Shown: piece by piece, positions 5,311 through 5,406 of the stretch | Numbering within the stretch: the stretch's first letter is position 1 | Layout: each line of letters opens with the position of its first letter | DNA from: a virus | Lineage: Duplodnaviria; Heunggongvirae; Uroviricota; Caudoviricetes | Reading direction: 5' to 3' (one strand) | Length of the DNA: 25,286 nt | Virus record (IMG/VR): IMGVR_UViG_2529293142_000022 | Position numbers and translations under genes: made by a program | Notes under the pieces: generated by a model | The model's input: only the letters and a program-made list of their open reading frames with translations | Database searches by the model: none | Told to the model about the DNA's origin: nothing

Positions 5311-5340
5311 AACCCGCTCATCAGCGGGTTTTCTACTTTT
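5311..5340 (+). terminator. Rho-independent terminator, probably bidirectional
   Basis: Hairpin aacccgc-tcatca-gcgggtt followed by ttctactttt on plus and preceded by an A-rich tract (U-run on minus). Confidence 0.5.
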
Positions 5341-5377
5341 TCTTAACGTCGGGTATACAAAGCCCATCGTTGAAAAA

Positions 5378-5406
5378 ATTTTATCCATATTTTTTGAAAA
5401 ATGCAA
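5378..5406 (-). promoter_or_regulatory. Putative sigma-70 late promoter (pR'-like) downstream of Q
   Basis: Minus strand reads TTGCAT-17 nt-TAAAAT, 30-60 nt below the Q stop and about 40 nt before the 5311-5330 hairpin; hypothesis only. Confidence 0.25.

Follow-up and report, generated by a model that had tools for sequence, protein, structure and literature searches.

The closest described counterparts of the locus studied here are the late promoters of phages whose antiterminator belongs to the lambda-Q family, PF03589 (PMC9388147). At lambda pR', the bases AACGAT at +1 to +6 form a −10-like element that is rebound by σ70, the following GGG is discriminator-like, and RNA polymerase pauses at +16 (PMC4005639). 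The Q-binding element (QBE) of lambda lies between −35 and −10, and lambda Q loads onto the σ70-paused polymerase complex; residues 1-44 of the protein form the torus, or nozzle, in the RNA exit channel, and either deletion of residues 1-38 or the V6A substitution abolishes antitermination and leaves DNA binding unaffected (PMC9388147). The curated P22 record (OQ031658) marks PR' and qut, begins the late RNA with the first A of AACGAT/AACGATGG, and locates tR' at +31 to +59. The phi80 record (NC_021190) gives TTGCAT as the −35 of pR', places a Q site within the spacer, and sets a terminator some 55-80 nt past the −10.

Here we analyze one stretch of viral DNA of 25,286 nucleotides (IMG/VR record IMGVR_UViG_2529293142_000022, hereafter the window), which is a Qin-type lambdoid prophage of E. 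coli. A group of minus-strand elements next to its Q gene very probably constitutes the pR', qut, and tR' late-gene regulatory cassette of this prophage, homologous to that of lambda. The cassette adds an as yet unannotated example to a textbook class; public K-12 data already show its start, its pause, and its 3' end.

Results

The promoter, the start region, and their relation to lambda pR'

The features of the locus are collected in Table 1. The 271 bases around the cassette are 99.6% identical to K-12 MG1655, and positions 5290-5445 of the window are identical to the K-12 sequence. A sequence-only reading of this DNA had placed a promoter of the form TTGCAT-17-TAAAAT at 5406..5378 of the minus strand and, about 40 nt further on, a GC hairpin with a U-rich tail (5330..5311), and had likened this arrangement just after Q to the lambda pR'/tR' layout. 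Direct reading of the sequence bore out the promoter, whose coordinates were correct, and the hairpin was confirmed as well, beginning 39-41 nt past +1, with its GC core at 5330-5311 and a U-rich tail, GTGCTTTA, that extends to 5302. The lambda-like layout is supported by the family of Q, the homology of the promoter, its recurrence in relatives, and the K-12 data. Between TAAAAT and AACGATGGG, which occupies 5371-5363, lie the six bases TTTTTC (all on the minus strand).

Table 1. Features of the cassette and its surroundings, in window coordinates
Feature	Position	Strand	Evidence
pR' −35 hexamer TTGCAT	5401..5406	(−)	read directly
Spacer TTTTCAAAAAATATGGA, 17 nt, putative Q-binding element (QBE)	5384..5400	(−)	position as in the lambda and phi80 QBE
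pR' −10 hexamer TAAAAT	5378..5383	(−)	aligned with lambda TAAATT
Transcription start (+1), first A of AACGAT	5371	(−)	homology to lambda +1 and the P22 5' terminus; K-12 dRNA-seq start
Sigma-dependent pause element: AACGAT 5371-5366 (−10-like) and GGG 5365-5363 (discriminator-like)	5363..5371	(−)	identical to lambda pR' +1 to +9
In vivo promoter-proximal pause sites, +17/+18	5354..5355	(−)	K-12 RNET-seq with σ70 pull-down
Short pR' transcript, 67 nt, counterpart of lambda 6S RNA	5305..5371	(−)	K-12 start and Term-seq 3' end
Possible RNA 5'-end hairpin, AACG/CGUU and UGGG/CCCG	5345..5371	(−)	fold; co-variation
tR' intrinsic terminator hairpin AAAACCCGCT-GATG-AGCGGGTTTT	5309..5332	(−)	fold; kept in relatives
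Q antiterminator (ydfT/quuQ type), codons 8-250 and stop	5438..6169	(−)	translation KYYSPKSPKLSDD... to ...LRKVTR and stop; Pfam
Q codons 1-7 (MNLEALP), stranded upstream of the IS	8682..8702	(−)	colinear with K-12
IS66-family element, ~2.5 kb, splitting Q	6178..8681	(−)	junctions against uninterrupted K-12
cspF (4804-5016) and ynfS (5071-5160), inserted cargo converging on pR'	4804..5160	(+)	Pfam CSD; ynfS translation
cspB	4288-4503	(−)	
Holin essQ ORF	3320-3610	(−)	Pfam Phage_holin_2_1, PF04971
ydfR	3004-3315	(−)	K-12 annotation
Lysozyme rrrQ	2474-3007	(−)	K-12 annotation

Consensus matching alone made neither the promoter nor the terminator significant, the counts being near the shuffled expectation. 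A promoter scan of 3500-7500 returned 10 sites (6.7 ± 2.9 expected from shuffled sequence), in which pR' appears as TTTGCA-18-TAAAAT with 9/12 matches, and a simple terminator scan called the hairpin on the plus strand only. Because such consensus scans do not discriminate, the case for the cassette rests on other evidence. When the window was aligned with lambda pR' without gaps, anchored on AACGATGGG, 32 of the 44 positions from −35 to +9 were identical. The 35 nt upstream of the anchor agree with lambda at 23 positions, the single best value among the 50,502 35-mers in the window (mean, 9.1), and the 11-mer TCAACGATGGG, common to lambda pR', occurs exactly once in the window, with 0.31 matches expected at ≤ 1 mismatch. 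Within the spacer that forms the putative QBE, 10/17 positions are identical to the lambda spacer; the pattern TTC..AAAA..TGG is common to relatives, and the spacer is nearly invariant among relatives with a 94-100% identical Q, in which the flanks vary.

Transcription start, pauses, and 3' end in K-12

In σ70-affinity RNET-seq data from a ΔgreAB strain, given in NC_000913.2 coordinates (Supplementary Data 1 of Sun et al. 2021, PMC7876045), K-12 pauses are listed on the minus strand at 1640429 (score 6881; the 12th row of the score-sorted sheet) and 1640430 (score 5783), 17 and 16 nt from the start, together with a weaker pause 13 nt from the start. The nearest dRNA-seq start, that of Thomason et al. 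as quoted second-hand in PMC7876045, is at 1640446 on the same strand. We obtained window positions by subtracting 1,637,051 from the U00096.3 coordinate, a relation that follows from the published ynfS coordinates, the ynfS translation, and the K-12 locus. With the offset between NC_000913.2 and.3 at the Qin site, which we take to be 1,976, the start falls on A5371 and the pauses on 5355 and 5354; given this offset, the start position holds to within ±2 nt.

The 3' end comes from Term-seq, in which an end classed as 'orphan' is listed at U00096.3 1642356 on the minus strand, with average reads of 103,591 (LB OD 0.4) and 55,368 (LB OD 2.0) and with a third entry elsewhere in the file (Supplementary file 1 of Adams et al. 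2021, PMC7815308). The sequence printed there, ...AAAACCCGCTGATGAGCGGGTTTTGTGC followed by TTTAAATGGG, places the end at C5305, 8 bases past the GC stem, under the convention of 50 nt upstream, the end, and 10 nt downstream, which we verified on the thrL row. As this 3' end is anchored by sequence, it independently confirms the coordinate mapping. Together, the start and the 3' end in K-12 define a 67-nt RNA, from 5371 to 5305, which is a discrete short transcript with high Term-seq counts. A start near 5370 of the minus strand and a short, abundant 6S-like RNA had both been anticipated from the letters of the DNA; the K-12 dRNA-seq start maps to 5371 in identical sequence, and the 67-nt RNA ending at 5305 is the short RNA. 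In neither PMC7876045 nor PMC7815308 are these sites connected with the late promoter of a prophage, the main text of PMC7876045 makes no mention of prophages, and our literature searches on the Qin/Q/cspF late promoter found no paper text describing the cassette or naming an RNA there.

The Q gene, its interruption, and the genes downstream

The product of the gene that precedes the cassette is assigned to Pfam PF03589 (Antiterm) with E = 2.4e-54. Its identity with lambda Q is 32% along the whole protein (tblastn), and with Q proteins from phages such as phi80 and HK225 it is 35-42%; ydfT of K-12 encodes 250 aa. Compared with lambda Q, the Qin protein has an extra insertion of 50-70 residues with two more CxxC motifs, four in all, and the scan of the protein matches Pfam DnaJ_CXXCXGXG. 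Q ends at 5438 and the −35 of pR' begins at 5406, directly downstream.

In the window, Q is interrupted after codon 7 by an IS66-family element, which is flanked by an 8-bp target duplication, CCTTACCA, at 6170-6177 and 8682-8689. The ends of the element read GTAAGCG... and ...CGCTTAC, its transposase ORFs are on the minus strand, and it matches an annotated IS66-like transposase. A comparable IS/Q junction was present in 1 of 5,426 complete genomes, at 92.5% identity. Few parts of the family are as well conserved as the N-terminus of Q, in which M1, L3, E4, and K8 are invariant, and this conservation, the phenotypes of the lambda Q mutants described above, and the location of the insertion together suggest that this copy of Q is unable to antiterminate. 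Read-through has probably been lost in this window, with the cassette terminating constitutively and making the short RNA only.

The gene order in K-12 is ydfU, ydfT (Q), the cassette, ynfS and cspF on the opposite strand, cspB, ynfU, the holin gene, ydfR, and the lysozyme gene rrrQ. Read-through from pR' would be antisense to cspF and ynfS, the latter having the translation given in PMC6001520. The lysis and late genes are on the same strand as pR', at 3610-2474, and about 1.7 kb containing cspF, ynfS, and cspB separates them from tR'; essQ, ydfR, and rrrQ are presumed to be the Q-dependent late genes. Since the Qin prophage is defective, its circuit may have ceased to serve lysis. An Rfam scan of 3000-7000 (E ≤ 1) gave no match at the cassette, its sole real hit being a cspA-type thermoregulator in the cspB leader.

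Conservation of the cassette

For a comparison across the family, we used a diverse set of 80 loci from Enterobacterales, one genome per species, which together with reference phages made 88 loci with Q proteins 35-100% identical. By cassette we mean a −35 and a −10 separated by 16-18 nt and followed, after 5-7 nt, by a hexamer that has A at its second and T at its sixth position and usually precedes GG. By this definition, the promoter and the −10-like element were found downstream of the lambda-family Q gene in 74/88 loci, and the pause hexamer was AACGAT in 30 of the 65 unique cases (32 of 74 after hand-curation). In most of the loci with a cassette, a hairpin follows whose T tract begins between +48 and +75; in a minority, the transcript is long, as in lambda. 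Among 80 viral contigs with a 94-100% identical Q, CTTGCATTTTTCAAAAAAYATGGATAARATTTTYYCAACGATGGGCYTTGT was almost invariant and the hairpin stem was kept, with variation in the loop. Directly past the T tract the sequences of these relatives bear no relation to one another, since the genes that follow differ from phage to phage. The cassette is intact in ~1,600 of the 5,426 complete E. coli genomes, roughly a third.

Possible pairing of the pause element in the RNA

In the predicted fold of the Qin RNA, its first bases, AACG at +1 to +4, are paired to CGUU (+24 to +27) and enclose a second helix, UGGG/CCCG; the lambda counterpart is AACGA paired to UCGUU (+19 to +23). Alone, the Qin hairpin is weak (−5.8 kcal/mol, z = −1.2). 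RNAalifold gives it as the consensus fold for 16 sequences of the Qin type, and within this subgroup there were one-sided changes only and no two-sided compensatory change. We examined co-variation between the pause hexamer and the downstream RNA in 74 unique initial transcribed regions from 22 hexamer classes by a class-level permutation. When the hexamers were swapped between classes, the mean best Watson-Crick helix fell from 3.91 to 3.21 bp (p ~1e-4). Leaving out the AACGAT class, or keeping a single representative of each class, did not abolish the signal, which was gone when the downstream part was reversed or only complemented (p = 0.49 and 0.64, respectively). It is visible only across hexamer classes, AAAGAT, AAAAAT, CACAGT, and CAAATT/CAGATT are exceptions, and, since 17 anchors were set by hand with a possible bias, the result is exploratory.

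The hexamers and their partners seen in individual classes include AATGAT with TCATT; AACACT, AACAAT, and AACAGT with TGTT(A); and AATAGT and GATAGT with CACTA. Further pairs are AATCGT and CATCGT with CACGA, AATCAT with ATGA, GATTAT with ATAAT, and AATACT with TATT. At the level of RNA, the pairings read AACGA:UCGUU, AAUGA:UCAUU, AACA:UGUU, UAGUG:CACUA, UCGUG:CACGA, and AUUAU:AUAAU.

It is quite possible, though we would not yet call it probable, that the pause element of the lambda-Q family doubles in the RNA as the 5' arm of a hairpin beginning with the first nucleotide, and that a segment at about +17 to +31 co-evolves with it. If so, the 5'-terminal stem could shield both the short RNA and the long late mRNA from decay that depends on the 5' end, or it could instead act once the RNA is threaded through the Q nozzle. 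In Qin, the stem would then aid the accumulation of the 67-nt RNA, which may itself be a regulatory sRNA. The literature that we searched contained no mention of an RNA-level pairing role for the pause element.

Alternative readings of the interval

The sequence-only reading had also assigned the hairpin a second role, as a terminator for plus-strand cspF transcripts, and this part did not find support: relatives that have no cspF keep the hairpin, and no plus-strand end appears in the Term-seq data, in which the curated tables for three growth conditions call none at U00096.3 1642370-1642409 (PMC7815308). The hairpin folds at −16.2 kcal/mol on the minus strand (z = −5.7; whole 67-nt RNA, z = −5.6), where the U tract is short and interrupted (UUUUGUGCUUU), and it is also stable on the plus strand (−14 kcal/mol, z = −7.0), where UUUUCUACUUUUUC follows. 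From this stability, and from promoter-like matches that are no commoner in the region than in shuffled sequence, one might take the hairpin to be primarily the cspF/ynfS plus-strand terminator and the promoter-like hexamers to be a chance match. We consider this very improbable, since the only end mapped there is a strong one on the minus strand and the promoter is homologous to lambda pR' and has a mapped start with a σ70 pause. In mEp460, there is no convergent csp gene and the hairpin is still present; its retention in relatives without cspF indicates that it is part of the Q module and moves together with Q and the promoter, not with cspF. We therefore rejected a primary role as the cspF terminator, which is contradicted both by Term-seq and by the module boundary after the T tract. 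Silence of cspF under those Term-seq conditions may explain the missing plus-strand end, and a secondary terminator role is thus conceivable. Another reading of the same bases is a 51-aa ORF at 5251-5406, which has a TTG start, is a hypothetical protein in phage PhiR42_1, and is an annotated CDS in PV340562. However, Pfam returned nothing for it, its start codon lies in the −35 hexamer, which puts the mapped start at 5371 inside it, and the terminator and the mapped 3' end at 5305 lie inside it as well; we rejected it as a gene and give this reading practically no credence.

The remaining alternatives accept the promoter and differ in what it is now for. The cassette might at present be mainly an sRNA gene, its 67-nt RNA kept for trans action on host mRNAs in the manner of StxS, which is compatible with an origin as pR' and which we regard as unlikely. 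StxS, from Shiga-toxin phages, is a precedent for a regulatory RNA from pR'/tR' and is likewise a short RNA made by constitutive late-promoter termination in the lysogen (PMC7547250). The Qin RNA reaches high levels in K-12 in two LB growth phases, its layout resembles that of an Hfq-type sRNA, the 5' hairpin being joined by a single-stranded, A-rich linker (AAGAAAAAGUAGAAAA) to a terminator that ends in a U tail, and the cassette, besides being intact in many E. coli genomes, survives here despite the broken Q. However, two-way terminators, too, typically have an A-rich stretch upstream of the hairpin, relatives do not share the linker and terminator sequences, as expected of a regulatory by-product, and we found no Hfq-binding, target, or phenotype data for the Qin RNA. 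StxS also differs from it in having a 258-nt pR'-tR' interval, RNase E processing to 74 nt, proven Hfq binding, and an rpoS target (PMC7547250), and the two RNAs are unrelated in sequence. Alternatively, the main present role of the promoter might be antisense transcription over ynfS and cspF, regulating both by partial read-through of a weak terminator. The short and interrupted U tract would fit such leakage, as would another 3' end on the minus strand, mapped at LB OD 2.0 with 87,904 reads to U00096.3 1642188 (window 5137), where it is antisense to ynfS (PMC7815308), but the tR' end is strong in both LB conditions. We consider the antisense role improbable.

Discussion

If the interval is a lambda-like late-gene cassette, the reading that we prefer, σ70 RNA polymerase would start at A5371 from TTGCAT-17-TAAAAT, and region 2 of σ70 would rebind AACGAT and GGG within the first nine transcribed bases, giving a pause at about +17/+18. 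Without Q, the polymerase would escape and stop at the hairpin, 5332-5309, leaving the 67-nt RNA that ends at C5305. Intact Q would bind the −35/−10 spacer and the paused polymerase, become a subunit of a terminator-resistant enzyme, and pass tR'; the Q-modified transcription would then cross cspF, ynfS, and cspB and reach the lysis genes essQ-ydfR-rrrQ. The start, the pause, and the 3' end are shown on identical K-12 sequence; both the binding of Q to the spacer and the Q-dependent read-through are steps that we infer for Qin.

This reading would explain three features of the K-12 transcriptome, namely an abundant 'orphan' 3' end, an unassigned start, and a top-scoring σ70-dependent promoter-proximal pause. 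It also points to a natural chromosomal lambda-like Q loading site that combines a divergent Q, with its zinc-finger insertion, and a start region lacking a −35-like element, which would be useful for comparisons of Q loading. For the strain represented by the window, the prediction is that the IS in Q locks the cassette in the terminating state.

The pause itself has a counterpart among the G1d distal σ70-dependent pauses of E. coli (PMC7876045). The K-12 copy is among the highest-scoring rows of that data set, and it matches the layout that defines G1d, with the −10, a 6-nt spacer, the start, and a −10-like element 12 bp after the start of the −10. Whereas PMC7876045 treats G1d pauses as host promoter features under Gre factors, the Qin pause would be the loading site of a phage antiterminator.

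Among the phage systems, lambda shares with Qin the Q family (PF03589), the position of the cassette directly after Q, and a constitutive short terminated RNA, and the AACGAT and GGG at +1 to +9 are identical, with the pause 16-17 nt from the start in the Qin copy. The two differ in the length of the short RNA (67 nt in Qin vs 194 nt in lambda), in the −35 (TTGCAT vs TTGACT), and in the late genes, which in Qin are separated from tR' by ~1.7 kb with the inserted csp genes. In lambda, a −35-like TTGACT abuts the pause element, whereas the window has TTTTTT there (3/6 matches). The lambda element helps to reposition σ region 4, and since Qin has no TTGACT beside the pause element, the details of Q loading may differ from those in lambda. 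P22 (gene 23; OQ031658), with its PR', qut, and tR', has the same Q family and the same AACGATGG start region, and the terminator of its short transcript (+31 to +59) is near that of Qin (+40 to +63), but its promoter is nearly identical to lambda's and its terminator hairpin is unrelated in sequence to the Qin hairpin. The Q protein of phi80 (gp17) is of a closer subfamily, as it also carries the zinc-finger insertion, and is 35% identical to Qin Q. Its pR' has the identical −35, TTGCAT, and a spacer that is also 17 nt long and ends in TGGA, with a core of TTCGCGGAAAAA compared with TTTTCAAAAAAT in Qin, whereas its pause hexamer is AACGCT, its discriminator is 7 nt, and the T tract of its terminator begins at about +68.

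Pause hexamer and a possible 5' RNA hairpin

To the late transcribed region of the window (5345-5371, minus strand) we added loci L002-L172, each lying downstream of its own lambda-family Q gene, and found that the sigma-dependent pause hexamer and a sequence complementary to it, around +17 to +31, co-vary (22 hexamer classes, permutation p ~1e-4, controls clean). This co-variation suggests that late transcripts of the lambda-Q family carry a conserved hairpin at the RNA 5' end.

An ORF of 51 aa overlaps the window's late cassette, and the record of phage PhiR42_1 (PV340562) lists it as a hypothetical protein. 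We rejected it as a gene, as promoter, start site and terminator all fall within it, and it is almost certainly not one.

Signals downstream of tR' and the insertion in Q

Published K-12 Term-seq (PMC7815308) contains a further 'orphan' 3' end on the minus strand, at U00096.3 1642188 and in antisense orientation to ynfS, which was detected at LB OD 2.0 only (87,904 reads) and could come from read-through of tR' or from processing; a promoter-like site lies just upstream of it. The cspA thermoregulator family RF01766 gave a full-length Rfam match (158.8 bits) over the cspB leader and gene, and therefore a cold-shock gene with an RNA thermosensor stands between tR' and the lysis genes. Downstream of cspB, a second GC hairpin looks terminator-like on either strand, and a plus-strand 3' end maps to it in K-12 Term-seq (U00096.3 1641060). 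Q-modified polymerase would have to pass this hairpin before reaching the holin gene. Where K-12 has ynfU, whose product of 56 aa is putatively zinc-binding, the window carries a 73-aa ORF with two CxxC pairs, which extends further at the N-terminus.

An IS66-family insertion separates codons 7 and 8 of Q. Its large transposase ORF appears to be split into two overlapping ORFs, which suggests a frameshift. Among 5,426 complete genomes of E. coli, a similar Q/IS66 junction was found in only one, that of an O157:H16 strain (92.5% identity).

Features of the window
Feature	Position	Strand
73-aa ORF	3704-3925	+
GC hairpin AAACCCGC-TCAG-GCGGGTTT	3987-4009	
RF01766 match	4272-4664	-
Orphan 3' end	~5137	-
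Promoter-like site TAAACA-16/18-TATATT/TATTAT	5181-5152	
51-aa ORF, TTG start	5251-5406	-
IS66-family element	6178-8681	
Target duplications	6170-6177, 8682-8689	
Transposase ORF, 61 aa	6208-6393	
Transposase ORF, 486 aa	6339-7799	

Possible other prophage pauses in K-12

Outside the window, K-12 has a pause cluster at NC_000913.2 576463-576467, which we take to lie inside the DLP12 prophage, upstream of the DLP12 holin gene. This cluster, which follows the TSS at 576452 (+), is among the top-scoring sigma70 pauses in the RNET-seq table (PMC7876045). Further prophage late promoters may be among the strongest pauses of the K-12 genome.
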